A DNA stretch of 64,000 nt from Thermofilaceae archaeon (GTDB lineage: Archaea > Thermoproteota > Thermoprotei > Thermofilales > Thermofilaceae), in assembly GCA_038727095.1 (NCBI GenBank), contig JAVYWK010000009.1:1-64000 (forward strand), in the 5' to 3' direction. The position numbers and the translations under genes are program-made. The notes under the pieces are model-generated. The model searched no databases. It was given only the letters and a program-made list of their open reading frames with translations, and was not told where the DNA came from. Shown piece after piece: positions 1-39,767 of this stretch (positions within the stretch are counted from its first letter, which is position 1; each line of letters begins with the position of its first letter).

Positions 1-25
1 GTTGAAAGTCTCTTCCGAGATGTAA

Positions 26-1360
26 ATGCCTAAACCACTGACCGGGGATATTTCCAGGCTCAACGTGGCCCTGAGGGAGTGCGCCGAGCTGGCCGGACAG
101 CACGGCTACGTGACGGCGCAAGCGCTCGCCGCCCGGATGGGCGTCACGGAGAGGATGGCTCGGAACTACCTCATGGACCTCCTGGACTTGGGGGCGCTTG
201 AGTACGCGGGGGGCGGCCGGTCCGTGCTCACCGGTGCTGCTCGAGCCAAGCTGGAGGAGGGTGAAGTCCTCGGCGGGGAGTACACCGTTGAAGCCGTCGC
301 GTCAGCCCGGGGGTGGGGAGGCGAGCTCTCCGAGTACATGATGGAGAAGGTGTACCGGCTCAAGGGCGCGCTTAGGGAGTTGGGGAGCAGGGAGGGGGTT
401 AGGCGGAAGCTGCTTCAAGCTGAACCACCGGAGGGCTTCAGCGGCGGCAGGCTGATCCTCTCCTCGAGGGACGTGGAGCGCAGGGAGGTAAGGCGGGTGG
501 CCGGCGAGGCGAGCGGCTACGCCTTGAGGGGCTACGTGTTGGCTGGGCTCGTCCCGATCACGGTCGCCTACATGTGCTCGGTGGCCGCCATCGTCGAGCT
601 GAACGAGGTGGGGCAGGTGGAGGACCTCAAGTTCCTGAGGAGGCCTGACGTCCGCGACTTCAGGGGTGGTGAGCCCTTCGACGAGGGTCTCGTCGAGCTG
701 GCGGTCGAGCACCCGGAGCTGCTGATCGCGGGCCGCAAGGTTGCGGCGAGGCTCCTCTGCGCGAGGCTCAAGCTCACGAACATGCTGGACGCAGTCGAGA
801 GGGGCGTGGAGCTGGCCGTGAGCAAGGGCACCCTCCTCCCCCACGGCTTCGTGCTGCCGGGGAGCGAGCTCTTCAAGAGGCTGGAGAGGGAGGTCGCCGA
901 GAGGTACGAGAAGCTCGTCGAGAGGGCCCGGGAGAGGGGGGTGACACTCGCCTCGATCATCGACGAGCCGAGGGACTACAGGTTCTACGAGGCGGTCAGG
1001 AGCCTGCTGGGGTTCAAGCTGGCCAGGGTGAGCGACGCAGCCTTCCTGAGCTACGTCCTAGACCAGTGGGAGTACACGGCCCCCCTGCGCGTCTCCAGGG
1101 AGCGCGGGAGGAGCGTTGAGGACTGGTACGAGTTCTACTGGAAGGTGGGCGAGAGGCTGATCAAGGTCGAGTACGTAACGCGGGGCGACCCGGTGGAAGC
1201 CCAGCGGGAGCTCATCGCCTCTCTGGCCCCCAACCTGCAGGTTGGGGGCATGCCCGTCGGCGTCTCGGAAGCCGAGAGCGCGGCGAAGGCCCACCTCAGC
1301 TGGATCAGGAGGGCCTTCGAGCAGGCGCTGAACCGGGCCTTCAGGGAGGGTGGGCCGTGA
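26..1360 (+). CDS. N-terminal winged-HTH fused to a NurA-like domain with apparently substituted catalytic residues
   Basis: HTH-like TAQALAARMGVTERMARNYLMDL; NurA-like layout (VAGEAS, AVSKGTLLP, SDAAFL, GMPVGVSEAE); overlaps herA start (GTGA). Confidence 0.7.
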   Translation: MPKPLTGDISRLNVALRECAELAGQHGYVTAQALAARMGVTERMARNYLMDLLDLGALEYAGGGRSVLTGAARAKLEEGEVLGGEYTVEAVASARGWGGELSEYMMEKVYRLKGALRELGSREGVRRKLLQAEPPEGFSGGRLILSSRDVERREVRRVAGEASGYALRGYVLAGLVPITVAYMCSVAAIVELNEVGQVEDLKFLRRPDVRDFRGGEPFDEGLVELAVEHPELLIAGRKVAARLLCARLKLTNMLDAVERGVELAVSKGTLLPHGFVLPGSELFKRLEREVAERYEKLVERARERGVTLASIIDEPRDYRFYEAVRSLLGFKLARVSDAAFLSYVLDQWEYTAPLRVSRERGRSVEDWYEFYWKVGERLIKVEYVTRGDPVEAQRELIASLAPNLQVGGMPVGVSEAESAAKAHLSWIRRAFEQALNRAFREGGP

Positions 1361-2754
1361 GGGTCGGCTACGTCATATCCAGGAGGCCGCCCACCAACTC
1401 CAGCTTCGAGTTCGAGCTCGAGGAGCCGGGCAGCGTCGCGGTGGGGGACTTCGTCGAGGTCCCCCTGGATAGGGGGGCTCTACTCGCCAGGGTCGCGAAA
1501 GCCTACGTGGAGAACCAGCTGCTCTCGAGCCCCGGGCTCGTCAGGGAGCACTCGCTCTACGGGCTCAAGCTGCCCAGCAGAGCCGCCCTGGAGACCTCCG
1601 AGGTCCACGTAGCCAGGGCCGAGGCGGTCGGCATCGTGGCTGAGGACGGCATCCACCCTCCGAGCACCCCACCTACCCCCGGCTCCCCCGTGTACACGGC
1701 GGCCGGCACCTCCCTCGCCCGGCTCCTCGGCTTCGTGGAGGGAGGGGTTAGGCTGGGGCGCGTCTGGAGGAGCGGGGTTGAAGCGGTGCTGGACGCGGAG
1801 CTTCTGCTGAAGCACCACGTTGCGGTTCTGGGGGCGACGGGCTCGGGGAAGTCCTACACGTGCGGAGTGCTGGCCGAGGAGGTTCTGGAGCTCGGACTCC
1901 CCCTCGTCGTCCTCGACCCCCACGGCGAGTACGCGACCCTCTCCGAGCGCTACAGGGTGAGGCGACTGCGGGCCGACCGGGTCGCCATCCCGCCCGGTGA
2001 GGTTTCGCCGGACGCGATAGCCGAGGCCACCGAGATGAGCGACGTGCAGAGGGACCTGCTCTACCTGGCCTGGCAGGAGGCCGAGGGCCCCTACCTCGAG
2101 GACCTCGAGGAGGCGGTGAGGAGGGTTACGGCTCAGTACCGTTTCAGGGACGAGACGCTGATCGCGCTGGTGAGGAGGCTCAGAGTCCTCAAGGCCTACG
2201 GCGCCTTCACTGGGAAGGGCGAGCGGCTCGAGCTGGCCGAGGGCGAGGCGCTCATCATCGACGTGGGGCTCGGGATGCCGGAGCACGTAACGAGGGCGCT
2301 GGCCGGCTCCATCGTCTGGCGCCTCTTCGAGGCGAGGAAGCTGGGCGACACGCCGCCCTTCGCCCTGATCGTCGACGAGGCCCAACGCTTCCTGCCCGTC
2401 GACGAGGAAACGTTCTCGAGGACGGCGCTCCGTACGGTGGCTAGGGAGGGGAGGAAGTTCGGGGCCTCCCTCACCATCGCCAGCCAGAGGGTCGTGGGCC
2501 TCGACAAGGACGTGCTCAGCCAGTGCGGGACGAAGATCCTCCTGCGGATGGACAGCCCAACCGACCTGGCGATGCTCAAGCCCGCCCTGGGGAGCTACGC
2601 GAAGCTCCTCCCCCACCTGCCCACCGGCGTGGCGCTCGTGACCGGCGTCTCCGCCCGCTACCCAGTCCTCGTCGAGGTTAGAGGGAGGAAGACCACCCAC
2701 GGAGGCTCCGGAGTCAAGCTCCGGATAAAGGCGCCGAGCGGAGGCACAGGCTAG
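1357..2754 (+). CDS. herA: HerA/FtsK-family ATPase (HAS barrel plus RecA-like domain)
   Basis: Walker A GATGSGKS, LDPHGEY, Walker B LIVDEAQ, REGRKFG, SQR, LPTGVALV. Confidence 0.9.
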   Translation: MRVGYVISRRPPTNSSFEFELEEPGSVAVGDFVEVPLDRGALLARVAKAYVENQLLSSPGLVREHSLYGLKLPSRAALETSEVHVARAEAVGIVAEDGIHPPSTPPTPGSPVYTAAGTSLARLLGFVEGGVRLGRVWRSGVEAVLDAELLLKHHVAVLGATGSGKSYTCGVLAEEVLELGLPLVVLDPHGEYATLSERYRVRRLRADRVAIPPGEVSPDAIAEATEMSDVQRDLLYLAWQEAEGPYLEDLEEAVRRVTAQYRFRDETLIALVRRLRVLKAYGAFTGKGERLELAEGEALIIDVGLGMPEHVTRALAGSIVWRLFEARKLGDTPPFALIVDEAQRFLPVDEETFSRTALRTVAREGRKFGASLTIASQRVVGLDKDVLSQCGTKILLRMDSPTDLAMLKPALGSYAKLLPHLPTGVALVTGVSARYPVLVEVRGRKTTHGGSGVKLRIKAPSGGTG

Positions 2755-2814
2755 AACGCCACGACAATCGATTCTCCCGCCCGCTGGAGCGGGCTTCAAG
2801 CTCTCGCAGCCCCA

Positions 2815-3267
2815 TCAGGCGGTGAGCTCGTCGGGCGACACCAGCGTATCCCTCAACCCGATCCTGCGGACGAACTCCTTCAGCTCCCTGTCGAGCGTGA
2901 GGAACCTCAAGTTGTAGCGGACTGAGGCAGCGTAGAGGATGTTGTCGATCATGTCCCTGTGGCCGAGCGCGTACAACCTGGCAGCCTCCGCGAAGACCCA
3001 AGCGTCCTCCCTAACCTCCCGGTAGACCCCGCTCTCCAGGATGCTCGTAAGCCCCTCGCTGAGGGCCTCGCGAGCCTCCGGGCTCGAAAGCCTCCTGGCA
3101 GCAACCCAGAGAGCCTCCAGGATGCTGAAGCGCGAGTAATAGACCTCCAGGCCTGAGTCGGCGAGAGCCCTCAAGCCCCTGAGAACCTCCCCTCCCACGT
3201 CGATCCCGAGGGTCGGGAGGATGAAGGACGTGTCAAGCAGAACCCCCGTACCTCGCCTGCTCCTCAA
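2815..3267 (-). CDS. vapC: PIN-domain VapC toxin
   Basis: LLDTSFILP, E in SILEALW, DMIDNILYA, LTLDREL; overlaps the AbrB gene. Confidence 0.9.
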   Translation of the reverse strand: MRSRRGTGVLLDTSFILPTLGIDVGGEVLRGLRALADSGLEVYYSRFSILEALWVAARRLSSPEAREALSEGLTSILESGVYREVREDAWVFAEAARLYALGHRDMIDNILYAASVRYNLRFLTLDRELKEFVRRIGLRDTLVSPDELTA

Positions 3268-3487
3268 GGCTCATCGCCTCAACCTCCTCCGGGCTCACGG
3301 AGGCGAACTTCCTGCCCGCCAGGGCCAGCCGGATGGGGTCGCGGACCAACTCCAGCACGATCCTACCCCCCTCAACCCTGATCAGCAGGCCATCCCCCTC
3401 CCGCAGCCCCACGGCTTCAACCACGGCTCTCGGGAGGTACACGGCGTACTTCCTCCCCACGCGAGCCCTAAAGACCGCAGCCACCAA
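3233..3487 (-). CDS. vapB: AbrB/SpoVT-type antitoxin
   Basis: RVGRKYAVYLPRAVVEAVGLREGD AbrB signature. Confidence 0.85.
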   Translation of the reverse strand: MVAAVFRARVGRKYAVYLPRAVVEAVGLREGDGLLIRVEGGRIVLELVRDPIRLALAGRKFASVSPEEVEAMSLEEQARYGGSA

Positions 3488-3605
3488 CCCGCACCAGGCT
3501 AAAGGGCCCCACCAGGTTATAAGAATTTAGTCAGGTTAACAGGCCGAAACCAGGCTAAGGTGGGTGAGCGAAGCCGGTGGCTTCAAACCCGCGATCAGGC
3601 CGGGG

Positions 3606-5120
3606 CTACCCGCGGCTGCAGTAGACCTCGACGCCATCGTAGGGTAGGCCTGAGTGGGTGATGAACACCCTATCCCTGTAGCTGGGCTGGTAACAGTCCC
3701 TGTACCTCAGGATCACCCGCTCCCTCGCGGCCCTCCGGAACCCCCTGTCCTCCAGGAGCTCCTCCCAGCGCTCCCGCAATTCCCTCTCCCGCTCCCTGGC
3801 CTCGCGCTCCAGCTCCCTGAAGCTGCACCACCGCTCCAGCTTGCCGCAAGCCTCCGCCGCGAGGAGGCACTTGAGGAGGTTGTTCTCCTCGTTGCTGAGG
3901 AGGTACTCGACGTGCGGCGCCGTAGGCTTTAAGTGCTGCTCAGCGAAGCTCCAGAGGTCCGACAGCCTGTAGCCCCTCCTACCCCCCACCTCAACAGGCC
4001 GGTAGCGCTCCACGGCCTCGAGCAGGGCCTCCGCGGCCGAGTAAGCCTCGAGCAGCACCTCCAGCGTCCGCCACCTCCCCTCGCTGATGAGGCACGCCGT
4101 GTCCACGGTGACCTCACCCCCCTCCTCAGCGAGCTTGACACCTCTCAAGGCCTTCGCGACGGCACCGATCAGCTCGTCCACCACCTCCCTGAGCCTCGGC
4201 AGCTGGGCGCGCCCCAGCAGCCTGGGTGCATAGTCGAGGGCTACCAGCGGGAAGCCGAAGCTGGCCGCGTACCACAGGCTCTCGAAAACCTCCCTGGCGC
4301 CGGAGAGCCTCTCACCAAGCTCCCGGAGGCCTCCAGCAACCCCCCTGAAGTCTACCGAGAGGAGCGTCTGCGGCTGCTGGAGGAGGTCCAGCACGTCGTG
4401 GAGCAGCCTCCTCCCCCGCCCCGCCTCAGGGTTGGGGAACTGGTAGAAGCCCGGGTCCAGCACCATCTCGTGCACCGCGAGCTCAACGAGCCCACCCTCA
4501 GGGCCGGGGAAGGGGTCGGAGTTCAGGATCCTCAAGCGCAGGTCCTTGAGCTTGAACCTGAGGACCCTGAGCGCCGCCAGAACGGCGACCAGCGCCGTGC
4601 TCGGCATGTAGTTGACGCCGTGGGTGAGGTCCAGCCAGACCTCGTCAACCCCGCCCGCGTCGAGAACTTTCTTCAGCACGTGGAGGAGAACCACGCTCTT
4701 GTAGAGCTGCAGCGAGCCCCTGAAGACCAACCAGCGATCCTTGAGCCTGAAGCGGCCGAACCCCGGGCACACCAGAACCTCAACCGAGCCCTTCAGCCAC
4801 CCCCTCACCCCCTCGTTGAGAGACTCCTCCTCAACTTCGAAGACGTCAACGAACTCGCCGTAAACCTTCTCAACCCAGCACCTAACCTCACGCTCCAACT
4901 CCCCCCAAATTCCCGGCAGCGAGCCAGCCCGGAGGCCGAGCGAAGCGTAGAGCGTGTCCGGAACGAGGATGAGCGCCCTCGCGCCGCGGCCAGCCCCATA
5001 GAGGATCAGCGGCAGAGCACTCCTAGCCCTACCCGCGAGCTCGCGAAACCTGTACCTAACCCCCGCCCACCGCGAAGGGTCACCCCACGTCGAAACTATC
5101 AGAACACCGCCGGACACCAC
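3606..5120 (-). CDS. csx1: Csx1 CARF-HEPN ribonuclease
   Basis: N-terminal STWGDP, DLTHGVNY (DxTHG), NSDP, C-terminal R-x4-H (RVFITH). Confidence 0.88.
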   Translation of the reverse strand: MVSGGVLIVSTWGDPSRWAGVRYRFRELAGRARSALPLILYGAGRGARALILVPDTLYASLGLRAGSLPGIWGELEREVRCWVEKVYGEFVDVFEVEEESLNEGVRGWLKGSVEVLVCPGFGRFRLKDRWLVFRGSLQLYKSVVLLHVLKKVLDAGGVDEVWLDLTHGVNYMPSTALVAVLAALRVLRFKLKDLRLRILNSDPFPGPEGGLVELAVHEMVLDPGFYQFPNPEAGRGRRLLHDVLDLLQQPQTLLSVDFRGVAGGLRELGERLSGAREVFESLWYAASFGFPLVALDYAPRLLGRAQLPRLREVVDELIGAVAKALRGVKLAEEGGEVTVDTACLISEGRWRTLEVLLEAYSAAEALLEAVERYRPVEVGGRRGYRLSDLWSFAEQHLKPTAPHVEYLLSNEENNLLKCLLAAEACGKLERWCSFRELEREARERERELRERWEELLEDRGFRRAARERVILRYRDCYQPSYRDRVFITHSGLPYDGVEVYCSRG

Positions 5121-5551
5121 CCGTCAAATGCAGTGGACACAAGGGTTATTTCTGGGCAACGCTGAAACAAGCGGCCTACAATAAATGGTACATTAATGGA
5201 ATTATGAGGTAGTGAAGTCGCCCCCGGCGTTTGCAGGGAACGCCATGGATGGGGAGAAGAGGGGTATCGCGCACGTGGTCTCACGGCATCTAGCGCGTAG
5301 CCCGGAGATCTGCAATCCGTGCTTGCCAAGGGCAGCCGCGCTCGCCCGGAGCGCGACGCACCACCAAAGGTTAACAAAAGTGCTGCTAGATTAGAGGATG
5401 TTACACGGACCCATGCTGCGAAGCAAGCCGTCGAAAACGTTCGATTACAGCTTCCGACGCCTCAAGACGTGGTGAAAAGCGGGCGAGCGATACCGCGCTA
5501 CCGGGCATCGCGTTCGGGCGTTTTCGCTCAATTGCTCTGGGGTTGCGGAGG

Positions 5552-5878
5552 CTAGCCGAGGGCTCTGCAGAGGGTGCTGTAGGCGCAGTAGCCGCAGCGG
5601 GGTCCCCTGAGCGGGGCTGGTGGCAGCTGCGCGGCGACCATCCTCCAGAGCCCGCGGGCCAGCGACTCGACGTACCGGCGGGTGGCGGGCGTGACCCTCT
5701 CCTCCACCGGGCCGTTGGAGCCGACGACGATGACGCTCGCGAGGGTGAGCCTCATCGTCTCCTCCGCGCAGAGGCCGTAGGCGATAGCTTGCGCGAGCAC
5801 GTGCCTCAGCCTGCCCCTCAGCGCCCTCCAGGAGACGGGGGTATGGGCTTTCACCTCTCCATCCTCGAGCTCCAGCAC
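5552..5878 (-). pseudogene. Truncated Cas4-like remnant (C-terminal half)
   Basis: QAIAYGL motif and C-terminal RCGYCAYSTLC cysteine cluster; N-terminal half missing. Confidence 0.65.
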
Positions 5879-5879
5879 C

Positions 5880-6397
5880 TCACCCCCCTTTCCTCCTCAG
5901 GTAGTCGAGCGAGAGGGTCACGGTGCCATGATCGGTGAGCATTAGGATGAGGGCGCTGTCACGGACGAGGGCCCCTCTCACCCACTCGTCTAGCTCCCTC
6001 AGAATCCTGCCTACGTACTCGCTTAGGAGCCGGAATCGGACGATGTTGCTAAGCGAAGCATACAGGCTATAGTCCACACTGATCAAGGCCTTAACCGCGG
6101 CCAGGAGGTCCACGAAGCAGGGTTTGCTCTCCGCGAAGCGCCAGTCGAAGGATCCCTCCCCGCCCGGCGCGCTTGACAGGTACTGGGCAGCGGCACTAAC
6201 GGACTTGCTCGGGTAGACGGCGCCGGCCGAGCGGAGGCTCGCGTCAGAGACGTTCACGACAATCAGCCTCCATCGCCGCAGCGTTCATTCAGGTTCTTGT
6301 AGGCTCTGCCGGCCCGCTGGATCAGCGCTCCCAGCGCCGCGACCTCCGCCACCACGGCGTCGAAGTCCACCTCAGCCTCCAGGAACCTGGGACTCAT
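5880..6397 (-). pseudogene. Cas3 helicase C-terminal remnant, frameshifted
   Basis: Minus strand 6397-6263 reads MSPRFLEAEVDFDAVVAEVAALGALIQRAGRAY (helicase motifs V/VI), then continues in another frame (AVYP). Confidence 0.65.
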
Positions 6398-6419
6398 GCA
6401 TGTTCATAAATGGCAACTA

Positions 6420-6639
6420 CTTTCCATCATTTTGATCGCGTCTTCTATCTCCTTCTTCATACTCTCCTCGACGAGGTTGTAGAGTTTTCTAATCTCTTGA
6501 TCGCTTGGGAGGGGATCTGCTTCGCCAGAGGCGCGAGGTATGAGTACTTTCTACTATCTCTTGATTGCTTCATGGAAGAGATAATAGAAGCTATCAAAGG
6601 ATCAACCGGTAAAGAACTTTCTATTATCTCTTGATCGCG
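6420..6639 (-). CRISPR. Degenerate mini-array, repeat family C (4 repeats)
   Basis: ctttct(a/c)tatctcttgat(c/t)gc copies at 6420, 6485, 6547, 6617 with 42-48 nt spacers; leader-like stretch from 6640. Confidence 0.75.
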
Positions 6640-6879
6640 TCTGTTGTCTGTTTCGGGTGGGGTTTTTAAGCTCTTCCATTCTTTTCGCGCTCCCTCTTTC
6701 CCTTTTTGCGCACAAACCCTTTCCGTGTATGGTTGCGGCTGCCTGTCCCCAGCCCCGGACGGTATTTTCAGCCTTGTTTCCAACCCCAGTACGAAACCCT
6801 TAAAGATCCGCTGCCCTGAATGTTCCCACACATTTCCGTTATTTTTCTGCTGCTTCGGTTTTCGGGTTGAGGGCTTCGG

Positions 6880-7143
6880 CGATAAGGAGGGCGAGCCGAG
6901 TTGCCTTGTAGGCGGTGGGTCTTCGGTTTTACGCTTGGAGGAGGTTGAGGGGGCGAGGGCGCGGATGTGGCGGGCTAGGGTGGACTCATCCCTGCCCAGC
7001 TGCTGGGAGAGCTTCTTGACGGTGGCTTCGCGCTTCGATAGGGCCTGGAGGATCCCGATCTTCTCCAGCGTCTCCCCCCTCTGCTCCAACGCGTACCTTG
7101 TGTCGGGGGGCGGCAACTGGTGGAAGCATGGAGGCAGCTTCAT
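6880..7143 (-). pseudogene. wHTH remnant resembling the C-terminus of Csa3
   Basis: ILQALSKREATVKKLSQQLGRDESTLARHIRAL; no CARF part; frame degenerates downstream. Confidence 0.5.
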
Positions 7144-7507
7144 TTCGTGAAGCGCGAGCCTGCCGGCAGCATGAGAGGGTCAGAGTTGAATGCCTTCAAC
7201 TTCACGCTGTTAAGCTCGAACCTTAGGATTGTAGCGACTGAAAGGACGGCAGCCATTTTTGCGCAACGCTGTTTGCGGTCAGCGGGTGCCCGGGCTGCGA
7301 TCGAGTATGGCTTTAACGCTTCCCGCGGAGGAGCGGAAGAACCCGAGAGACGGAGGGACTACCTCCTAGAGGTAACGGGGACCTGTGATCCGCGTTCCAA
7401 CGTAGCTCGAGCCGGGCGGCTTCCCATTGAAGATGGAAGAAGCTGTTGAAGGGTTGATGAGCTGGAAGAGGGGAAAATAACCGGCTTCGGGGTGGGTTGC
7501 GGGGGTC

Positions 7508-8572
7508 CTACTGCATGGTTAGGGGTATGGGGATTGCCGTCCCGTATCCTAGCTGGCCGCCAGCCTCGCTCAGCGAGCTCCAGTAGAGCTGTTCCAGTGG
7601 GCGGGGGTCGGGGAGGTCGACGAAGATTATCGAGCCTGGCTCGAGGGCTAGGTACACCGGCTTCCTCCTGCCCTTGGACAGGCTGAAGCCCGCCCCGAGC
7701 AGGGCTGTTGAGCCGACAATTCCTAATACTCTTGCGCTGTAGGTGCTAAGCTTTTCCGCGATTACTTCGAGCAGCTTCTCCCTTGTTAGCCCGCACTTGA
7801 ACAGTGCTGGCGAGGCGAGGTAGAGGGCTATGGATCCCTCAGCCTTCTCTCTACCCCTCCAAATCACGCTCTTGATCGTGGTGAGGACGGCGGACCCCTT
7901 CCTGAGGGCAGTGACCCTGCCCTCGCCCCCCAGCTTGACTGCGTAGAAGCTGTCTTCGAGCTGAAGGTTTCTCGCGTCTACGCAGATCTCGACCCCTTCG
8001 GTGTCCGCCGCGGAGAGGACGTAGTCGACGTAGCTGGCGGCGTACAGCAGCCCCCGCTTCTCGTCCGCGACTTTCACGCCCTCAGTTCTCTTCAGCAGTC
8101 CGACGCCTACCCTCTCCTGCAGCTTCCCTAATGCCTGAGCCTTTCTCTCAAGCTCCTTGATCAACTCTCTGTGCAACAGCACCCACTCCTTCGCTTCGCT
8201 GTAGGTCTTCGCCCCCGTCTGGGCTAGCCTCCAGTAGCCCACCGCTAGGCCCGGTAGCTCCCCTAGCCTGAGCCCCCGCTCGCCGTAAGCCACTTGGAAG
8301 TCCCCGCTCTTTAACAGGTAGGGGCCTCTCAACTCCGCGTTGCCCAGCACCGACTTGATCTCCTCCTCCCAGCTCTCCCCACCAGGCATGAGCCCGGGGT
8401 TCTGCTCGAGGATGAGGGTGGCGACAGCGCCCGCGATTGTCGAGGGTGTCGGCAGGCTGAAGCTTCTAGCGCTAGAGTAGATGCCTCTAGAGCTCGGGTC
8501 GAACTCGCCCGCCCTCCTAAACATCATGGGCTCCAGGATTCTGAACCTCAAGCTGAAAGTCTCCCCGCTCAC
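7508..8572 (-). CDS. cmr3: Type III-B Cmr3
   Basis: LEPMMFR, LPTPSTIAGA, KLGGEGR, LYLASPA, PGS, C-terminal LGYG. Confidence 0.9.
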   Translation of the reverse strand: MSGETFSLRFRILEPMMFRRAGEFDPSSRGIYSSARSFSLPTPSTIAGAVATLILEQNPGLMPGGESWEEEIKSVLGNAELRGPYLLKSGDFQVAYGERGLRLGELPGLAVGYWRLAQTGAKTYSEAKEWVLLHRELIKELERKAQALGKLQERVGVGLLKRTEGVKVADEKRGLLYAASYVDYVLSAADTEGVEICVDARNLQLEDSFYAVKLGGEGRVTALRKGSAVLTTIKSVIWRGREKAEGSIALYLASPALFKCGLTREKLLEVIAEKLSTYSARVLGIVGSTALLGAGFSLSKGRRKPVYLALEPGSIIFVDLPDPRPLEQLYWSSLSEAGGQLGYGTAIPIPLTMQ

Positions 8573-11500
8573 ACGAACCCCCTCACCCCGCTCCTAGCGA
8601 GCCTAACGAGCTTGATGATCTCCAGGACTAGAGGCCTGGCTCTACCCGCTCCCTCTCCAGCCTCGAGCAGGAACGCGTTGTAGGAGGCGAGGCTCGCGGC
8701 TAGCCTATCCGCTAAGTCCTCTCCAGCTTTCCTGGCGGCCTTCAGGTTCCTCCTGAGGAGTGTGCGGAAGTAGGGTGCCAACAGCTGCTGGTACCCGAGC
8801 AGGCGCTCCAGCAGAGCGGCGCTGGCAGGGTCAAGCGCGTCGTAGACTAGCGACTCTGAGAACACGCCGCTATCTAGGGCTTTGAGGACGCTTTCAGCGA
8901 GCTCGAGTGCTCCGCAAACGTCGCCGGCCTTGCTGATGCTTTTGCTCTCTCTGAGCAGGACGCAAGCTGTCCTCTCTCCCCCTCCTGGCGCGTAAACCGC
9001 TACTAGCGTGTCTTTCTCGATCGTGCCTTTCGGCGTGCTCCACTTCGCCTCCTTAGCCTGCTGCTCCAACACTTCGTGGGACCTACGCAGCACAGCCGAC
9101 ATCGGGTACCTGTAGTGCGCCTCGTAGACAGCGTAGCTTCTGCCCGCTGGAATCAGAGAGGGCACATGATAGCTTCCCAGTTTCTCGAAGCCCAAATGCT
9201 TCGTTCCTTTACTCTTGCTCCCGACCCCGAACGAGAGCCTCGTCTCAGAGGCGATAGCGAGGGCTCTGGAAACTGGGGCCAGTGCGAGCAAGTCGTCCCC
9301 ACCGGAGTAGACGGCAAAGCCGTCCAGCTCTTCCACGATCTCAATGTCTCTTACCGCAGTTCTCATCAAGGCTCCGCTCAGGGACGCGTGGTAGAGCGGG
9401 CTCACAAGCAGGCCCCCCTCCCTTTTCATCTCATCGACCAGCTCTTTAATCTCGGCGCTCGCTCCGAGCCTGGGCTCCTCCCCGCAGAGCGCGCTCTCCA
9501 CCTTGCTCCTCGCCTCGCCCTCGAGTGCCGAGAGGATGTGCTCCTCCAGCTTCACCCCGAGCGCCTCCTCCAGCTTCCCGGATATGAGCTTGCCAACGTT
9601 GTCGCAGTCCGCCCTTACCAGCGCGTAGTAGACGGTAGTGCCCCCGAGCCTGAGATCCCTGGCGAGGCTGAGCCACTTCTTCCTGTTCTCCTCGCTGAAC
9701 CAGAGTAGCTCCGCGCACATCGTCACAAGTAGCTCTAGCAACGCTAAGGACTGTTCCAGCTCCTTGCCCTTCCCGGCCCTCTCGCGGAGCTTGCCGAGCA
9801 ACACCTGCTGCTTCCTCCAGAATGCCGTGCCCTGCGGAGCGACTGGCCTTCCGAGCTGGAAGAGACTGTCCATCAAGGTTTTCACCACCTTCTCCCGTGC
9901 CTCCCCGCTCTCTAGCGCCTTCTCCAGGAGCGCCTGCCTAAACTCTACCGAGGCTACGTCGGAGGTGGATGGGAATGATACCTCGAAGCGCCTAGGTTGC
10001 GCGGGCGCCCCGAGGAGGCTTTTCAGCATAATCTCCGGCTCTAGGGCCATGATCCTCTTGGCTAGGCAGTATGGGCAGAGCTTCTCGCCGCCAGAGAAGT
10101 AGGGCTCAAGGCTGAGAGCTAGGCTCCTCGCTTCATCGCGCGTCACGCCGAGCTCCCTCTCGAGGACTCTCAGGAACTCCTCTCTACCCTGCTCTCTGGG
10201 AACGATCAGCACTGCTGGGAGCTCTCCGCAGGAGGTGCAGTAGTCGAAGCCCCTCCCAGACCTAAACTCCTTGGGCCAGCCGACATCCCCGCTCGTCCAT
10301 GAGGTAAGGTCTAGCTCGCTCGCGTAGCTCACTCTGAAGAGTTTCTCCCTGCCCAGCTTGTACTGAAGCTTCGCGAATAGGCAGTGGTACAGCTTTTGCA
10401 AATGCTGTGGCCCCAGCTCCTCAAGGATTTCTGAGACCTCGACGGTTATCACCCTGATGGGCAACGGGGGAACCCGGTCGAACCCTACTTTCTCCACTCC
10501 CTCTAGCTGCTCAGCGAGCTTGCCTAAGAGCTTACCCATCGCGTCGCCGCCTCGCCCTTTCAACCCCAGGATTGAGCTCCAGATGGAACTCCACGCTTCC
10601 CTGTACCTCTCGACCGCGTATTTCTCCAGGCTCTCTCGGTCCTTTATCGTCGAGTCTACGTACTGCTGAAGAACCTCGTAGTCGGGGAGCACCAGCAGGA
10701 GCGTGCCCGGCACCACGGCGTAGAGCGGGTACGTGTCCCTCTCGGGGTTGTAGCCGCTGACCTTCTCAATCACGTCCTCCACGCTCTCAGCCAGCTGCCT
10801 ACTGCCGATCGATGAGAGGAGCGAATGGTAGTAGAATGGGTTGTACCTGCATGTCGGCATCACGAGCACGTCGGGGCCCAACTTCTCGATGAAAGTCCAA
10901 GCCGTCCTCCAGGCCAAGGCGGAGACGAGGTAGCTTGACACCCACAAGTCCCTGAGCTTCCTGGATCTGGAGATGAAGACCTGGATGCTGGGGATGTCGA
11001 TCATTAGGAGCAGCCCGCTCGGCTCCTCGCCATGGAGGAGCCAGTTCAGCGTCGAAGCCGTTGCGTAAACTTCGTCGAAGACTGTGGCGGTTGGGGCTCT
11101 GAGGTCTACAGGGTTTGAGGGTCCTCCCAGCCCTACCCAGAGAGCCTCGTAGAAAGCGTAGAGAAGGTGGTAGGCATCCCTCTCGCTGCTAGCCTTGCGG
11201 AGCAGCTCGTTAAGGCTAGCTGCTAATTCGCTGGTCACTCTGCTGACGCTGTCCGGGCTAGCCTCCACCTTCACCTCGAAAGCTGGGTTGAACAGGTTCT
11301 TGAGCTTCAGGCTCTTAGCGGGCGCTCCTCCTGCGAGCTCGGCCAGAAGTCTCTCAGCGCTCAGCGACAAGAGTCTAGCCTTCCTGATCCTCGGGTCTGT
11401 AAGCATGCCAGCCGCCTCCGCTAGGACGGTGTCTTTGAGGATCTCGCCAGCTACCCTTAGCGCTTCCTCCTCGTGAGGCTTGATCCCCTGAGGAGAAAGC

Positions 11501-11589
11501 GGCGCGCTGAGCACGCCAGTCTCCACCCAGGGCTTGTCCACCGGCTCGTGCAGCAGAGCCGCAGCCTTGAGGAGGAACACCTGCTTCAC
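8569..11589 (-). CDS. cas10: Cas10/Cmr2 with intact Palm2 GGDD and degenerate HD
   Basis: IQVFISRSRKLRDLWVSSYL, CxxC...CxxC zinc site, RADCDN, YSGGDDL; N-terminal LLHEP instead of LLHDP. Confidence 0.95.
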   Translation of the reverse strand: MKQVFLLKAAALLHEPVDKPWVETGVLSAPLSPQGIKPHEEEALRVAGEILKDTVLAEAAGMLTDPRIRKARLLSLSAERLLAELAGGAPAKSLKLKNLFNPAFEVKVEASPDSVSRVTSELAASLNELLRKASSERDAYHLLYAFYEALWVGLGGPSNPVDLRAPTATVFDEVYATASTLNWLLHGEEPSGLLLMIDIPSIQVFISRSRKLRDLWVSSYLVSALAWRTAWTFIEKLGPDVLVMPTCRYNPFYYHSLLSSIGSRQLAESVEDVIEKVSGYNPERDTYPLYAVVPGTLLLVLPDYEVLQQYVDSTIKDRESLEKYAVERYREAWSSIWSSILGLKGRGGDAMGKLLGKLAEQLEGVEKVGFDRVPPLPIRVITVEVSEILEELGPQHLQKLYHCLFAKLQYKLGREKLFRVSYASELDLTSWTSGDVGWPKEFRSGRGFDYCTSCGELPAVLIVPREQGREEFLRVLERELGVTRDEARSLALSLEPYFSGGEKLCPYCLAKRIMALEPEIMLKSLLGAPAQPRRFEVSFPSTSDVASVEFRQALLEKALESGEAREKVVKTLMDSLFQLGRPVAPQGTAFWRKQQVLLGKLRERAGKGKELEQSLALLELLVTMCAELLWFSEENRKKWLSLARDLRLGGTTVYYALVRADCDNVGKLISGKLEEALGVKLEEHILSALEGEARSKVESALCGEEPRLGASAEIKELVDEMKREGGLLVSPLYHASLSGALMRTAVRDIEIVEELDGFAVYSGGDDLLALAPVSRALAIASETRLSFGVGSKSKGTKHLGFEKLGSYHVPSLIPAGRSYAVYEAHYRYPMSAVLRRSHEVLEQQAKEAKWSTPKGTIEKDTLVAVYAPGGGERTACVLLRESKSISKAGDVCGALELAESVLKALDSGVFSESLVYDALDPASAALLERLLGYQQLLAPYFRTLLRRNLKAARKAGEDLADRLAASLASYNAFLLEAGEGAGRARPLVLEIIKLVRLARSGVRGFV

Positions 11590-12485
11590 CCTCTCAAACC
11601 CCGCGCCCAGTTGCCCCTTCCGACTCTCTCGTAGCTCTCGGCCCTGAGGGCTGAGTAGCCGGCAGACGTCTTAGCCCCCACGCCGAAGTACAGCGCGTAG
11701 AGTACTGCGAGGTCTACCAAGCCTAGCGCGCTCTTCTCCGGCTTAGGCTCTGCTGCTGCGTCGCTGCCCGCCTCCAGCTTGAGCTTCCTCTCGCCCCTCT
11801 CCGGCACGAAGTACACGTAGAACTGGAAGGAAGTACCGGGGGCGACGCACAGGTAGGTCACTGGCACTGGCTGGGCTTCTAGCTCAGTCCTAGCGCCTCG
11901 GTAGTGGGGCGTTAGCACGTCCGGGTAGAGGATGTACCCCTTTTCGCCCGCCTCCACGGGGTAAGCGTCCGTGAACCCGACGAGCCCAGCCCCGACCTCC
12001 GGGCTCCCGAAGAGGCGCTTTGCATCCTCCTCTCTCCCGCCGAGCGAGATGTAAGCGCTCCTGACAGCTCCCTTGATCGTGGAGGCCGGTATGAAGGGTG
12101 CGTTTAGGATAGGGTCGAAGGAGAGGCCGATGTCGAAGGCTACTCTCCCGAAAGACGTGCTAACCCCGAAAAGCCCTCTTGAAACCAGTTTCGCCCTAAC
12201 CCTCCTAACCTCATAGCCCAGGCTTATGAGGGCCCCCTCCAACTCCTCGAGAAGCTTCTCGATCTTCATCCTGTTCACGGTGAAAGTCCGTGCTGAGGCT
12301 TTCACAAGTTTCTCGAGAGTCTCTCTCTCCAGCTTCTCCACACCTTTCTGTTCACTCTTCTCGAGGGAGAGGTGTACGCTACTCAGCGCGATGTACGACC
12401 AGAAGCTCGTGCCCTCCGTAACGGCTTGATCTAGGATCTGCCTGAGGGAGCCGAGGTCAATCCTCTCCTCCTGCACGCGCCTCAC
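11586..12485 (-). CDS. cmr6: Type III-B Cmr6 (start probably GTG at 12485 or 12476)
   Basis: PFIPASTIKGAVR, LFGS, FTDAYP, DVLTPHY, GVGAKTSAGY. Confidence 0.92.
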   Translation of the reverse strand: MRRVQEERIDLGSLRQILDQAVTEGTSFWSYIALSSVHLSLEKSEQKGVEKLERETLEKLVKASARTFTVNRMKIEKLLEELEGALISLGYEVRRVRAKLVSRGLFGVSTSFGRVAFDIGLSFDPILNAPFIPASTIKGAVRSAYISLGGREEDAKRLFGSPEVGAGLVGFTDAYPVEAGEKGYILYPDVLTPHYRGARTELEAQPVPVTYLCVAPGTSFQFYVYFVPERGERKLKLEAGSDAAAEPKPEKSALGLVDLAVLYALYFGVGAKTSAGYSALRAESYERVGRGNWARGLRG

Positions 12486-13861
12486 CTCTGCAAAATCTCC
12501 ACTACGAAGTTCCATGCTGTCTCGAAGACCTCTACTAATTGCTGTTCCAGGCTCAGCCCCTCCAGGCTCCTGAGCTTCCCCGAACTCGGATCCCGTATTT
12601 CCCTTAGCAGTGAGCACACCGACTGCTCCCCTCCCCCACCTATGTGTACGAAGCTCTCTCTCTTTAAGAGGTCGAGCCAATCGAAAGTCAGGAACCCGCA
12701 CACCGCTACGTAGTAGCTCCTGCGACTGCCCTTCTCGGAGGGGATCACGGAGAACAGTATGGCCGATTGCCTCCTCAGGTTCTGGTATCCTGAGGCTGTC
12801 TGCTCAACGTAACCTGTCTTCTGACCCTCATATTCAGAGGATCTAGGCAGCCCTAGAATCCACGTGTGGTACTTCTCGCTCGATTCCTTCCTAGGGTCTA
12901 ACTTTAAAGCCTGTTTCCACGACGCTTTAAGCGTAGCACTCCCTATCCGGCTCAACGCGGAAGTCGGGTCGGGGAAAGGCTTATTGATAACCTGTATTCT
13001 AAAGAGGGGGGCACGGGTCTTGCCGACGGTAATCTCTTTCCTGCTCAACACTGGATAACGCGGTAGCTGTGTTCCCTGCGCCGGCTTGAGCTTCTCAGGT
13101 ATCCGCGATAGGTACTGCTTAGCTACGCTCATAGCGTTATCGATTAAGCTGTTGAGGCACTCCTGCACATCCTGGGGGTTTCCAGCTGCGTACATTCTGC
13201 TTAACGTGTCCTGCAGGATCCTACACCCCTTATCCGCGCACGACACGCTCAACTGCGTTGAGCCGAAACCCCTGTTCGTGATCGAGCCGACACCGCCGAG
13301 AGCCAGGCTCAGCACAAGCGAGTAAAGGGAGAACAGCTTCTCCTCGCTGGAGAGGCTAGCGTGAGGCCTCCTAAAAAGCTCTATGGTGAAGCGAAGCTTA
13401 CCGGGACTAAAGTAGCGCCTGGGATTCTCCTCACTCAGGTAGCGCCTCTTATCCTCACTGCGCGGCGGCCTAAACAGCTTTAGTCTCGCTATCCTTTTAA
13501 TTCTCTCCGCCTCCTCAACTCCCGCTTGCACGGTTCCAGCCGAGACTCTCAGCGAGAGCTTTGACGCTGAATTCGTGCTGCCCAAGACTGGCGCCACCAG
13601 CTCGTCGAGGTCCTCAAGGCTGGAGGGAAAGTCACTGTACTCCTCGTACCATGCGCCTGCTACGAGTGCTCTCGCCCACCATCTCCAAACTCCTCTGATC
13701 GCCTGAGACCTCGGCCTTTCCTGCAAGTCTAGCTCCGAGCTGTACGGCCGGGCGTTGTAGCCCCCTATTCTCGTTATCGTAACATTCCTCACGTGGATCC
13801 TCGCGACTAGACCCCCCCTAGATAGTTCCTCCGCGATCTCCTCAAAAGTAGGGCTCATCAC
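12482..13861 (-). CDS. cmr1: Type III-B Cmr1
   Basis: IRGVWRWWARA, LGGVGSITNRGFG, LGLPR, RRQS. Confidence 0.9.
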   Translation of the reverse strand: MMSPTFEEIAEELSRGGLVARIHVRNVTITRIGGYNARPYSSELDLQERPRSQAIRGVWRWWARALVAGAWYEEYSDFPSSLEDLDELVAPVLGSTNSASKLSLRVSAGTVQAGVEEAERIKRIARLKLFRPPRSEDKRRYLSEENPRRYFSPGKLRFTIELFRRPHASLSSEEKLFSLYSLVLSLALGGVGSITNRGFGSTQLSVSCADKGCRILQDTLSRMYAAGNPQDVQECLNSLIDNAMSVAKQYLSRIPEKLKPAQGTQLPRYPVLSRKEITVGKTRAPLFRIQVINKPFPDPTSALSRIGSATLKASWKQALKLDPRKESSEKYHTWILGLPRSSEYEGQKTGYVEQTASGYQNLRRQSAILFSVIPSEKGSRRSYYVAVCGFLTFDWLDLLKRESFVHIGGGGEQSVCSLLREIRDPSSGKLRSLEGLSLEQQLVEVFETAWNFVVEILQR

Positions 13862-14349
13862 TCTCCACCCGGCTTCTCCCTAGTGTAGACAGCCTCGGCC
13901 AGCTTCTTCAACTGGATACAGTAGGGCGTGAGGAGCTTAGCAGCTAGAACCTGCACGTCGACCAGCTCTCCCAACGCCTCCACTGGCTGCGCCGGGTCCT
14001 TCTTCAGAACCCCTAGCTCGCGGAGGTAGGAGAGCACCAGGAAAAGGTAAAACGCGTAGCCACCCTCTTCCTTCCCAATCACTTTCTTTCCCCTCTCTCG
14101 CTGAGCTTCCGCCCCCCACCCTTTTTGCCAGGCGCTTACCACTCTGTTGTATGTGCTCTTGGTAGCCCTCGCAAAGCAGAAGCTGAGCGCGGGAACCAGG
14201 CCCACGTCCTCAATCATGCTGAGTACCGATCTTGCCCTCGCCCTGAAGCTCTGGCCCATATCTTCGTCGAGGATGCCTGACTCGATGCCCTGTGCGATGA
14301 GGTTTTGTAGCTTGCTGAAATCCTCCACCGCCCTCCGAACCGGGTCCAT
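13858..14349 (-). CDS. cmr5: Type III-B Cmr5 (small subunit)
   Basis: FRARARSVLSMIEDVGLVPALSF, LKKLAEA; position in operon. Confidence 0.85.
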   Translation of the reverse strand: MDPVRRAVEDFSKLQNLIAQGIESGILDEDMGQSFRARARSVLSMIEDVGLVPALSFCFARATKSTYNRVVSAWQKGWGAEAQRERGKKVIGKEEGGYAFYLFLVLSYLRELGVLKKDPAQPVEALGELVDVQVLAAKLLTPYCIQLKKLAEAVYTREKPGGE

Positions 14350-14359
14350 GACCACCCCC

Positions 14360-15313
14360 CTACAGGAGCTCAAGCTTGACTATCCCGCGCCCTATGGTCT
14401 CGTGCCCGCCTATCACCAAGTAGTTCTCCCTCTCCCTCAGCTTCTTGAGGAGCTTCTCCCTAACTTCCCCGGCGCACAGCTCCTCTTTTCCAAAGACCTG
14501 CTTCATCCCATTCATCAGTTCCTTCGAGCTCCTAGGCACCCGAGGCTTCGAGTAGAGCAGTACTGTGTAAAGTAAAGTCTCCCTCGGTATGTACTCCTCA
14601 GTCCATAACCCCCCCTCCTCAACAGTCTTTGTCTCACGGCTCAGCCTCACGCGGGTCACCCTCATAAGGCTCTTCTCCACAGCCCTCCCCACCTCCTCGT
14701 CACTGAGCAGCATCAGCCTCTCCTCCTCAAGCCCGAGCACTCTGGCAAGCTCAGTGAGGCTCGAGCCCACACCGCTGTCGGACTTCGGGTTCAGCCAGAG
14801 TTCCTCGTTCACCACCACCTTGCTTAGCTGTGGAACCAGGAAGAGGTCGCTGCGAACCACATAGACCTCTCCCCTTCTCACACTTACTCCGGATAGTGCC
14901 TCCACCGCCCTCTTAAGACTCTGGAATTTGCTGCCTGCGGGGCCTGCCTTGCTGAGAGACCCTACCAGCTCGGCGTAACCTCTACACCTCTTCAGGAGCA
15001 AGGGAGCCGTCGCGTAGCCGTAAACCCCGATCAGGCTTCTAACCGGAAACGCCAGGAGGTAAGCGTCCAGCACCGCCACCGGCGAGGAGAACTTCTCCAC
15101 CTCCTCTACCTCCGGCCCGAAGAGGAAGCTAGCGAGGGCTCCACCGATAGTGCTCTTCATCGCGCCCTTGAGACTCGAGCCGTAGATCATGGGGAAGCCC
15201 AGCCCGTCCCTCTGCACAGGGAGATCGACAACCTCACCGCCCCTCCCAACCCCGGGGTGGAGCGCAGTAACCGTCTTTATGAGAGCAAAATCGGCTAGCT
15301 CATAGCTCATCAC
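14360..15313 (-). CDS. cmr4: Type III-B Cmr4 backbone RNase
   Basis: LHPGVG, VDLPVQRD (catalytic Asp present), GSSLKGA, LWTEEY, IGGHETIGRG. Confidence 0.95.
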   Translation of the reverse strand: MMSYELADFALIKTVTALHPGVGRGGEVVDLPVQRDGLGFPMIYGSSLKGAMKSTIGGALASFLFGPEVEEVEKFSSPVAVLDAYLLAFPVRSLIGVYGYATAPLLLKRCRGYAELVGSLSKAGPAGSKFQSLKRAVEALSGVSVRRGEVYVVRSDLFLVPQLSKVVVNEELWLNPKSDSGVGSSLTELARVLGLEEERLMLLSDEEVGRAVEKSLMRVTRVRLSRETKTVEEGGLWTEEYIPRETLLYTVLLYSKPRVPRSSKELMNGMKQVFGKEELCAGEVREKLLKKLRERENYLVIGGHETIGRGIVKLELL

Positions 15314-15473
15314 TACTAAAAGAAGCCTCAGGTAATTAAGCCTTATTACGACTCCGTCGCCAACCTCAAACCATGATTCAGGCTAAGCTGAAGAAGTTGG
15401 AAGTTTTCAGCCCAAGAAACGAAAGAACTCAGAGACCCAAACCTAGTGATTGGAGACAATGTACACCATGACT

Positions 15474-15676
15474 CAATTCAAGAGATAGAGTCTGTTGGAG
15501 AACCTTCACACAGTGTTCACAATTTATGATACAATCAAGAAATAATAGAAATTTCGAACCAATTAAAGAGCTTTTCATAGTCTGTTCGCTCGATGCAATC
15601 AAGAGATAATAGAAAGAAGCAATACGATGTATTTAGCCAGGGCTATGACTAGAATCAATTAAGAGATAATAGAAAG
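15474..15676 (+). CRISPR. Degenerate mini-array, repeat family C (3-4 repeats), convergent with array 1
   Basis: gcaatcaagagataatagaaag at 15595; variants at 15474, 15531, 15655; ~60 nt period. Confidence 0.75.
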
Positions 15677-15720
15677 TAACGCCTTCGGCCCGGCCAGGGG
15701 CTCCTCCGCAGCCATCGCCC

Positions 15721-20258: not shown

Positions 20259-20385
20259 CGTTGTCCCGCGTGTTTTCCTCGGGTGCTTTCTCCCTCAGGT
20301 TTGGCTCCTCGGGCTGGGTGTTAAGTTTTTCCTTGGGGAGTTGGGTTGCTCAACTCCCTCCACTCGGGGCTGCTCCACGCGCTGG
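20259..20385 (-). promoter_or_regulatory. Leader of array 1
   Basis: Reverse complement aligns with the array 2 leader (agcgcgtggag...caactccccaaggaaaaacttaa...ggaaaacacgcggg). Confidence 0.85.
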
Positions 20386-22061: not shown

Positions 22062-22259
22062 GGGACTCCTCGAGTACCCGGGGTCGGAAAGTTATAAGGT
22101 TGGCGTGGTAGGTTAGAATGAGTTATGCAACTCTAACACCATCGATCAGGAGTCCCATCCTGGGGCAACCTCGCAGTTGAGCTGTACGGTGCAACTTAAA
22201 CTTAAAACTCGAGAGTAAAAGTATAAATACCTAAAGAATTTGTATTCTAGCGAAGAATT

Positions 22260-23845: not shown

Positions 23846-23878
23846 TGAAGCGCTCCACCCAGCATATAGGGTGTTTGA

Positions 23879-28974: not shown

Positions 28975-29012
28975 GCACCTTCATATACATGTGGGCCTCC
29001 TGTTATTAGGGT

Positions 29013-39755: not shown

Positions 39756-39767
39756 TGCGCCCAGCCT

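Follow-up and report, generated by a model that had tools for sequence, protein, structure and literature searches.

What does a NurA-like protein contribute to a HerA motor when the residues with which NurA cuts DNA are gone? The question is raised by two overlapping genes at the start of a contig (JAVYWK010000009.1, assembly GCA_038727095.1) of a 1.86-Mb Thermofilaceae genome; the first 64 kb of this contig, from position 1 onward, were analyzed here and are called the window. The first gene encodes a divergent NurA-like protein, which we call NurA*, and the second encodes HerA, and both lie in a region of cas genes and CRISPR repeats. Our leading interpretation, which we hold with slightly better than even confidence, is that nurA*-herA represents a CRISPR-associated HerA motor with a dedicated non-cutting NurA-fold partner that would serve type I-A and type III loci, most likely in spacer acquisition. 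An earlier note on this DNA had read the pair as a possible non-nucleolytic module that might load or gate HerA, or might dock another effector such as Csx1 or Cmr.

The two genes are co-oriented and overlap by 4 nt, with the GTG start of herA (1357-1359) set against the TGA stop of nurA* (1358-1360):

26-1360, + strand: NurA-like gene (nurA*), open reading frame (ORF) of 444 amino acids
1357-2754, + strand: herA, ORF of 465 amino acids

The same genome holds two further NurA-HerA pairs. The second, on contig C14, has intact motifs (IDGS, LDGS and YPRPLSYVHH), and the third, on contig C40, reads DAS and MDRS and keeps its catalytic motifs. A neighbor of the C40 pair (L003) matches an HFX_2341_N-like (CARF-like Rossmann) domain below the cut-off, at E 7.2e-5.

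Predicted fold of NurA*

Pfam NurA (PF09376) gives a weak and partial match to NurA* (28.5 bits, cut-off 21; profile positions 65-253 of 254 on residues 233-421), and only 4 of the 16 relatives scanned reach this family at E<=1e-3. A sequence search of NurA* against the PDB returned no NurA, and the profile of the NurA* family matched only winged helix-turn-helix (wHTH) regulators there (4o5v_A, E 0.0031). Fold search and hhalign were needed to bring out the kinship with NurA. The AlphaFold2 (AF2) model was built on a 28-sequence alignment, with a mean predicted local distance difference test score (pLDDT) of 84 and a predicted template modeling score (pTM) of 0.72. Its best structural match is Sulfolobus solfataricus (Sso) NurA (2ygk_A, Foldseek E 9.4e-10), onto which VIA-align places model residues 83-444 along chain residues 1-332 (Z 20.5, root-mean-square deviation [rmsd] 3.6, 281 residues). 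The NurAs of Thermococcus kodakarensis (9x1m_G, Z 19.2) and Pyrococcus furiosus (3tai_A, Z 17.6) also match, and endonuclease V and Argonaute PIWI domains score far lower (Z about 11). In hhalign, the NurA* family aligned to a reference of 29 canonical NurAs from genomes of the same class with a probability of 98.5% (E 1.8e-14). NurA* is thus modeled with the NurA architecture, terminal helical extensions included, and the identity that the earlier note had assigned is borne out by both structure and profile alignment. The predicted domains are as follows:

26-271, + strand: predicted wHTH DNA-binding domain (residues 1-82; AF2, Foldseek and profile search)
272-427, + strand: helical linker, counterpart of the NurA N-terminal helical extension (residues 83-134; helices 88-94, 98-119 and 122-131)
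428-1360, + strand: NurA-fold (RNase H-like) domain, canonical active site absent (residues 135-444; VIA-align and hhalign)

The N-terminal domain had also been noticed before, and the model agrees with its reading as an added wHTH. AF2 places helices at residues 5-26, 31-38 and 42-55, strands at 58-62 and 65-68, and a further helix at 70-82, a helix-helix-helix-strand-strand order; folded alone, residues 1-82 give a helix-helix-helix-hairpin with pLDDT 92-97 over residues 11-70. At the head of the Foldseek matches stand the winged-helix regulators MarR, IdeR and MntR, with E values that are weak (3e-3 to 3e-2), yet all top matches are of this kind, and 8pw0_A superposes with rmsd 1.7 over 62 columns. 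Pfam HTH_11 stays below threshold (22.2 bits against a cut-off of 25, E 1.3e-4), and across 14 sequences there is no variation at R43, Y48, L52, Y60, G62 and G64. Judged from the models, the N-terminus of NurA* is a winged-helix domain, a three-helix bundle with a beta-hairpin wing, and a predicted DNA binder.

Loss of the canonical NurA site

In Sso NurA, residues D58, E116 and D133 are catalytic, and K202 and Y298 are other conserved active-site residues (PMC3326311). The corresponding positions among our 29 canonical sequences read D 29/29, E 24/29, D(-G) 29/29, K 28/29 and Y 25/29, with a further D (28/29) between the Lys and the Tyr. We compared them by hhalign with NurA*, and then with a family alignment of 56 full or near-full sequences, 54 of them distinct, all in open frames and ranging in identity to the window NurA* from 98% down to 18%:

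First Asp: A159 in NurA*; acidic in 0/54 of the family
Glu: K249 in NurA*; acidic in 0/54 (His 22, Arg 10, Lys 9)
Second Asp: K267 in NurA*; acidic in 3/54
Lys: D313 in NurA*; Lys in 1/54, Arg in 5/54
Tyr: M409 in NurA*; Tyr in 0/54
His of the YPxPLxxAH motif: E417 in NurA*; His in 1/54

The altered motifs described in the earlier note are therefore real (VAGEAS 158-163, SKGTL 266-270, IIDE 311-314 and MPVGVSEAE 409-417), and the profile alignment adds the loss of the catalytic Glu, which had not been listed. As judged from this alignment, the whole NurA* family is without the NurA Asp-Glu-Asp triad, the essential Lys and the Tyr. By hhalign, NurA* keeps G160, G268, D337 and Y371 of canonical NurA. 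Conservation within the family is high at E224 (52 of 54), R242 (52), H273 (53), D317 (51), D337 (54), E369 (52), Y371 (53), G160 (52) and G268 (54). D337 is shared with canonical NurAs (28/29), whereas E224, H273, D317 and E369 are not conserved there.

These residues give rise to a rival explanation, in which NurA* is still a nuclease with a metal site rebuilt from E224, H273, D317, D337 and E369 (together with E161, D313 and E415 in Thermofilaceae), and the pair would degrade DNA much as a canonical HerA-NurA complex does. Three acidic residues and one His that canonical NurAs do not conserve, plus D337, are each held in 51-54 of the 54 sequences, and some lie near the old site in sequence, H273 six residues past the lost second Asp and D317 four past the lost Lys. 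Against this, all five residues that are needed or conserved in NurA are gone together, and a single K202A substitution already abolishes the nuclease activity of Sso NurA and D58A is likewise nuclease-dead (PMC3326311); E161, D313 and E415 are, moreover, conserved in one branch only. We consider a rebuilt nuclease unlikely, if still worth keeping in mind.

Breadth and phylogeny of the family

A word-indexed search found 12 close relatives of NurA*, and 51 representatives came up at E<=1e-3 in an exhaustive profile search, 19 of these at E<=1e-30. Named members come from Thermofilum, Infirmifilum, Bathyarchaeia, Asgardarchaeia, Jordarchaeales and Freyarchaeota. Those recovered by a second profile search, in Asgardarchaeia, Jordarchaeales, Freyarchaeota and Bathyarchaeia, are every one labeled "hypothetical protein," and one Infirmifilum member is annotated "DNA double-strand break repair nuclease NurA." The family is rare. 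Of 120 genomes of the class, 12 hold a full-length match, and at E<=1e-15 there are matches in 10 of 401 sampled genomes of the phylum, all 10 within the same class. Protein Atlas matches of 0.80-0.90 to cyanobacterial and Bathyarchaeota clusters serve as leads only.

In FastTree analyses, a single branch with a Shimodaira-Hasegawa-like support of 100 splits the NurA* family from the catalytic NurAs, with or without the wHTH columns. The full-length tree compared 53 family rows with 30 canonical rows after one 331-aa fragment was removed, and the wHTH-free tree compared 54 with 29. Both trees are midpoint-rooted only and have several long branches, so that they show one split and no direction.

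Could NurA* simply be a decaying, functionless NurA paralogue? Two points speak for it, the weak Pfam match and the two other NurA-HerA pairs with catalytic motifs in the genome. Yet 54 distinct intact members from at least three archaeal lineages share both the loss and the near-invariant residues, nine in number; HerA is always coupled, and a single split separates the family from canonical NurAs. Because of this shared pattern, we interpret NurA* as an old conserved family under selection rather than a decaying gene. The conservation data refute decay, to which we give practically no weight, and the check on homologues called for in the earlier note thus finds the substitutions common to the whole family.

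The HerA motor

HerA was said to be intact and translationally coupled, and this is what we find. It carries Walker A (GATGSGKS, 159-166), Walker B (LIVDEAQ, 337-343) and the REGRK motif (363-367), in keeping with a RecA-like core with an arginine finger, and it matches Sso HerA (4d2i_A) at E 1.8e-28 and Pfam DUF87 (PF01935) at 1.5e-28; the HAS-barrel match (PF09378, 6.9e-4) falls below the cut-off. Against the NCBIfam equivalogs NF040937 and NF040819 it scores 128 and 124 bits, well short of the cut-offs of 800 and 970, and by these comparisons the window HerA is a divergent paralogue and not the repair orthologue. Among PADLOC models the best is PDLC04105 (1e-41); PDLC01055, the type III co-evolved HerA, is also matched (1.8e-25) but is outscored by five other HerA models. 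Across the family, herA lies directly 3' of nurA* and co-oriented in all 19 assessable loci.

Gene context in relatives

Nine Thermoproteota loci were compared, the window's own and those of 8 relatives; full-length matches exist in 11 other genomes, of which G020, G039 and G017 were left out as short contigs. HerA lies 3' of nurA* in 7/7 loci with downstream sequence, L049 and L051 ending at nurA*. In the six relatives among these (6/6), cas4, cas2 and cas1 directly follow herA, and csa1 is present too in four. The adaptation genes are convergent with herA in L044, L045, L046 and L050; in L047 and L048 they are on the same strand, forming an apparent operon nurA*-herA-csa1-cas1-cas2-cas4. A cas6 gene is found upstream in three loci (L045, L046 and L051), and the cluster has large CRISPR arrays on its flanks in L044, L045 and L046.

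The Asgard/Bathyarchaeia branch was represented by 13 metagenome loci. HerA follows nurA* in 12/12 assessable loci (7 via Pfam and 5 via tblastn, with only the L088 frame read through for stops). Seven of the loci continue past herA, and in 5 of these a cas6 gene begins 80-180 nt downstream of it; type I-A effector genes occur in L084 and L088. Overall, the fetched flanks contain cas genes in 8/9 Thermoproteota and 6/13 metagenome loci; five of the other seven metagenome contigs end in or just after herA. The gene immediately upstream of nurA* in L088 encodes a 1013-aa PglZ-domain protein (6666-9707).

Next to the pair in the window lie the following features:

2815-3487, - strand: VapC (PIN) and AbrB/MazE-type antitoxin pair (PIN 4.6e-9, MazE_antitoxin 1.5e-10)
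3606-5120, - strand: Csx1, with CARF and HEPN domains (Csx1_CARF 8.5e-29; TIGR01897 9.4e-30; PADLOC Csx1/Csm6 CARF+HEPN 3.1e-39)
5558-5857, - strand: Cas4 relic, C-terminal approximately 100 residues only (tblastn with the L050 Cas4, 70% identity over its residues 141-238 of 242)
7508-15313, - strand: type III-B (cmr) effector genes (Cas_Cmr3 1.4e-20, Cmr2_N 6.9e-29, RAMPs)

The Cas4 relic matches Pfam Cas_Cas4 (PF01930) at 1e-4 over profile positions 83-158 of 160, below the cut-off, and tblastn detected no Cas4 N-terminus, Cas2 or Cas1 within window positions 1-16000. The toxin-antitoxin pair is not at the equivalent position in L050, a relative of the same genus. Because the Cas4 that abuts herA in L050 survives here as a relic beyond the toxin-antitoxin pair and csx1, it appears from this comparison that the toxin-antitoxin pair, csx1 and the cmr module replaced former adaptation genes beside nurA*-herA.

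The csx1 and cmr genes reported near the pair are thus present, and a second rival explanation builds on them. Here, the pair would be an accessory of type III systems, with NurA* docking or gating Csx1 or the Cmr complex, as the earlier note had suggested. Within the window, the distance from the pair is 850 nt to csx1 and 4.7 kb to cmr3, a type III module is found upstream in L044, and surveys term such pairs type III co-evolved (PMC6546367). When the relatives are considered, however, Csx1 adjoins the pair in only one of the seven Thermoproteota loci with downstream sequence (the window itself) and type III genes do so in two of nine (the window and L044), while cas4-cas2-cas1 follows herA in all six relatives and Asgard/Bathyarchaeia-type loci have type I-A genes and cas6 (the latter in 5/7). 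In the window, the csx1 and toxin-antitoxin block sits between herA and the Cas4 relic. The PADLOC model of type III co-evolved NurA, PDLC01056, was matched neither by NurA* at E<=0.01 nor by four other members (P0013, P0017, P0020 and P0032) at E<=1e-3. The proposed docking on Csx1 or Cmr is not supported by this comparison, and we regard a type III accessory role as quite improbable.

We also considered whether the pair is an independent HerA-based antiviral system, like the bacterial Sir2-HerA or DUF4297-HerA systems, that merely clusters with CRISPR in defense islands. HerA matches many PADLOC HerA defense models, toxin-antitoxin pairs flank the pair in several loci, and other NurA-HerA pairs sit beside bacteriophage exclusion (BREX)-like genes. 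On the other hand, no effector domain accompanies the pair, NurA* is without the nuclease site of NurA, and the neighbors are specific cas genes, with an operon-like order in L047, L048, L090 and L091, which makes such a system quite improbable as well.

A further alternative takes NurA* as mainly a wHTH regulator, or a binder of CRISPR arrays or leaders, with HerA as a remodeling motor (e.g., clearing or loading proteins at arrays) and without a prespacer role. The wHTH resembles MarR- and DtxR-type repressors, the pair adjoins cas6 and arrays, and the contig start, 17 nt before the gene, may be a repeat remnant (see below). Regulators rarely need an obligatory hexameric double-stranded DNA translocase, however, and conservation goes beyond the wHTH to all of the NurA scaffold (about 310 residues). 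A purely regulatory role therefore seems improbable to us.

Comparison with known NurA-HerA and HerA systems

Canonical HerA-NurA (Sso 2YGK/4D2I; T. kodakarensis 9X1L-N; P. furiosus 3TAI) has the same two-gene order and the same folds, and the N- and C-terminal helical extensions of its toroidal dimer fall within the aligned range of NurA*. NurA* differs in being without the Asp-Glu-Asp triad, Lys, Tyr and His, in its extra N-terminal wHTH and in its location, inside CRISPR-cas loci and not with mre11-rad50. The experiments described for the Sso proteins offer a precedent for a motor of this type. Sso HerA alone showed no unwinding there, and with NurA it becomes an ATP-dependent helicase/translocase, an activity best seen with the D58A mutant (Blackwood et al. 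2012, PMC3326311). HerA with NurA D58A acts on several substrates in an ATP-dependent manner, opening overhang and splayed-end DNA, driving the migration of Holliday junctions and displacing triplexes (PMC3326311). An active HerA with a non-cutting NurA scaffold is, as far as these reported assays go, the state that the NurA* family would have by nature. D58A is, however, a laboratory point mutant, whereas NurA* has five site residues replaced, six other polar residues conserved and a wHTH added. What remains of the earlier interpretation is therefore its core, a NurA-fold partner without the canonical site and tied to HerA, whose non-nucleolytic role fits the D58A precedent (PMC3326311), and what finds no support is the docking on Csx1 or Cmr.

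CRISPR-linked pairs, known as Cas NurA/Cas HerA, have been described before (Bernick 2012, PMC3396285; Vestergaard 2014, PMC3973734; Shah 2018, PMC6546367, clusters 57 and 58). As described in these papers, they are likewise separate from the repair pair and lie in type I/III CRISPR loci of Thermoproteota, and according to Vestergaard 2014 (PMC3973734) they are specific to types I and III, with NurA always beside HerA. In this broad sense, in or next to CRISPR-cas cassettes and with NurA beside HerA, nurA*-herA belongs with them. It differs from the Pyrobaculum nurA-csm6-herA arrangement described by Bernick 2012, in which csm6 lies between the two genes; nurA* and herA overlap instead, and no Cas_APE2256 protein was found beside them in the loci scanned. 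Our literature search, supplementary tables aside, found no CRISPR-linked NurA described as inactive or HTH-fused. With published Cas-NurAs compared by description only, the natural loss of the site together with the wHTH fusion appears to be an undescribed variant of a known CRISPR-linked NurA-HerA theme.

Two other NurAs, from two other genomes of the class, were examined as candidate Pyrobaculum-type Cas-NurAs and rejected, since both have BREX-like neighbors and neither is CRISPR-linked. In L094 (4478-7298), a NurA that matches PDLC01056 weakly and has both catalytic Asp residues kept (Pfam 1.1e-40) lies beside BrxL and an Eco57I-type methylase. In L095 (6534-10676), a compact 250-aa NurA (Pfam 2.7e-13) adjoins a 963-aa BrxC/D-like ATPase with a Cmi2-type HTH.

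Bacterial HerA-scaffolded defense systems and TdpAB (8WFD; PMC11291478) likewise join a HerA hexamer to a partner, and a TdpB-like chain (8wfd_G) matches the NurA* model with Z 13.0. The bacterial partners described there are active effectors (nuclease or NADase), whereas NurA* is without the NurA nuclease site and its context is cas genes. RecBCD/AddAB prespacer supply is likewise a case of a helicase/translocase at DNA ends feeding Cas1-Cas2, but it involves an unrelated protein family, the HerA motor of our proposed module would itself do no cutting, and the analogy is a purely inferential one.

The wider window

The contig begins with a short sequence that recalls the repeats of the second CRISPR array. 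The further features of the window are as follows:

1-8, + strand: possible CRISPR repeat 3' end, GTTGAAAG, at the contig start and 17 nt before the nurA* ATG (the array 2 repeat ends ATTGAAAG)
15525-20300, no strand assigned: CRISPR array 1, 72 repeat copies found
20443-30951, no single strand assigned: cas6, csa3, type I-A effector genes and adaptation module (cas2, cas4, csa1 and cas1)
28089-28307, + strand: cas2 of the adaptation module
28399-28953, - strand: cas4 of the adaptation module
29013-29945, + strand: csa1 of the adaptation module
29938-30951, + strand: cas1 of the adaptation module
31075-33983, + strand: CRISPR array 2, 46 repeats

GTTGAAAG and the repeat end ATTGAAAG agree in 7/8 bases, which is a hint at most. 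The contig start may be a CRISPR repeat remnant, placing an array directly upstream of nurA*-herA, and the assembly probably broke inside that array. Window positions 1-3556 are also covered by a public DNA contig of 5919 nt (run X7, record 25), which reaches about 2.4 kb farther upstream.

Window DNA was found in hot-spring metagenomes, with 17 runs holding at least half of the sampled words. One extra T after intergenic position 3507 was seen in all three DNA runs compared with the window. RNA contigs from one metatranscriptome library (run X18) lie over 394-1610, 1776-2148 and 2238-2624, which is most of both genes, and one of them spans the nurA*-herA junction; for expression of the two genes these contigs are only a hint. 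Stretches that lack RNA cover, among them 1-393 and 2625-3031, carry no information either way.

The adaptation module (28089-30951), the only one in the genome, is unusual in its order and strands and holds the genome's only cas1 and cas2. The two arrays (15711-20300 and 31075-33983) have opposite orientations and related but different 25-nt repeats. The left edge of array 1 (15525-15676) holds a second, degenerate repeat type in three copies, which end in AATAGAAAG; copies of this AATAGAAAG type are closer to the repeats of L044 and L046 than the window's two arrays are. In the stretch 5552-6257 (- strand), a 125-aa ORF in a different frame, without a family match, comes before the 108-aa ORF of the Cas4 relic. 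Between the relic and cmr3 lies a gene for a 228-aa ArsR/HTH_20-domain protein (6457-7143, - strand), with a lower G+C content (0.58), and this stretch may be inserted DNA. A HEPN/nucleotidyltransferase (MNT) toxin-antitoxin pair is found at 39354-40103 (- strand).

Proposed function

The reading of nurA*-herA as a non-degradative translocase or helicase follows from three observations, since the scaffold is conserved, the motor is always present and the cutting residues are gone. From the fixed place of the pair beside cas4-cas2-cas1-csa1 and cas6, we infer a role in spacer acquisition. A link of this kind has been raised before. In Sulfolobus islandicus, Csa3a co-activates the adaptation cas genes together with nurA/herA, and a RecBCD-like supply of fragments was proposed (PMC5587795); for CRISPR-linked nurA-herA, a part in adaptation was proposed by Bernick et al. 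(PMC3396285).

A number of points weigh against this reading. The assignment of the Glu column to K249 comes from a low-confidence hhalign stretch together with equal spacing (in both, the Glu and Asp positions are 18 residues apart), and the canonical columns were equated with Sso D58, E116, D133, K202 and Y298 by motif order. The conserved polar set of E224, R242, H273, D317, D337 and E369 could form a rebuilt catalytic or ligand-binding site, and E161 of the Thermofilaceae branch lies two residues past the lost Asp on the same strand, a position with Glu in 18/54 sequences. As for context, no cas1 was seen beside the pair in the Asgard/Bathyarchaeia loci, where the neighbors are cas6 or type I-A effector genes; this setting fits any CRISPR-linked role and not adaptation specifically. 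The window pair itself is 27 kb from the genome's only cas1, albeit in the same supercluster. Lastly, the RNA library may contain carried-over DNA, which weakens the hint of expression.

In the mechanism we propose for a non-cutting pair, a NurA* dimer would dock on the HerA hexamer, as in Sso HerA-NurA(D58A), and would switch on ATP-driven translocation and strand separation without degradation. The wHTH would add duplex binding or targeting, and cutting would be left to the neighboring RecB-type nucleases Cas4 and Csa1. In this way HerA-NurA* would supply DNA, or make it accessible, to Cas1-Cas2 for capture as spacers, making the module an archaeal nuclease-free counterpart of RecBCD-type prespacer supply. 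A more specific version, which we offer tentatively as one possible form of this scheme, is that a wHTH-guided NurA* ring makes HerA a pure translocase/helicase that would load at DNA ends or at the leader or array and hand unwound DNA to Cas4/Csa1-Cas1-Cas2, with the six conserved polar residues forming a pocket that may sense DNA ends or nucleotides.

The source of prespacers in archaeal type I-A and type III systems is not settled, and NurA-HerA has been proposed for this role on indirect grounds, from Csa3a co-regulation and from gene linkage in Pyrobaculum. The NurA* family offers a clean test case, because a NurA* that cannot cut via the known site would have to contribute through translocation, unwinding or DNA binding. 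Annotation also stands to be corrected, as members are called "hypothetical protein" or, misleadingly, repair nuclease NurA. If our reading is true, archaeal type I-A and type III systems, those of Asgard archaea included, would carry their own RecBCD-like prespacer supply with the cutting outsourced, and NurA* would be a natural example of a pseudo-enzyme kept as the obligatory activator of its motor partner.

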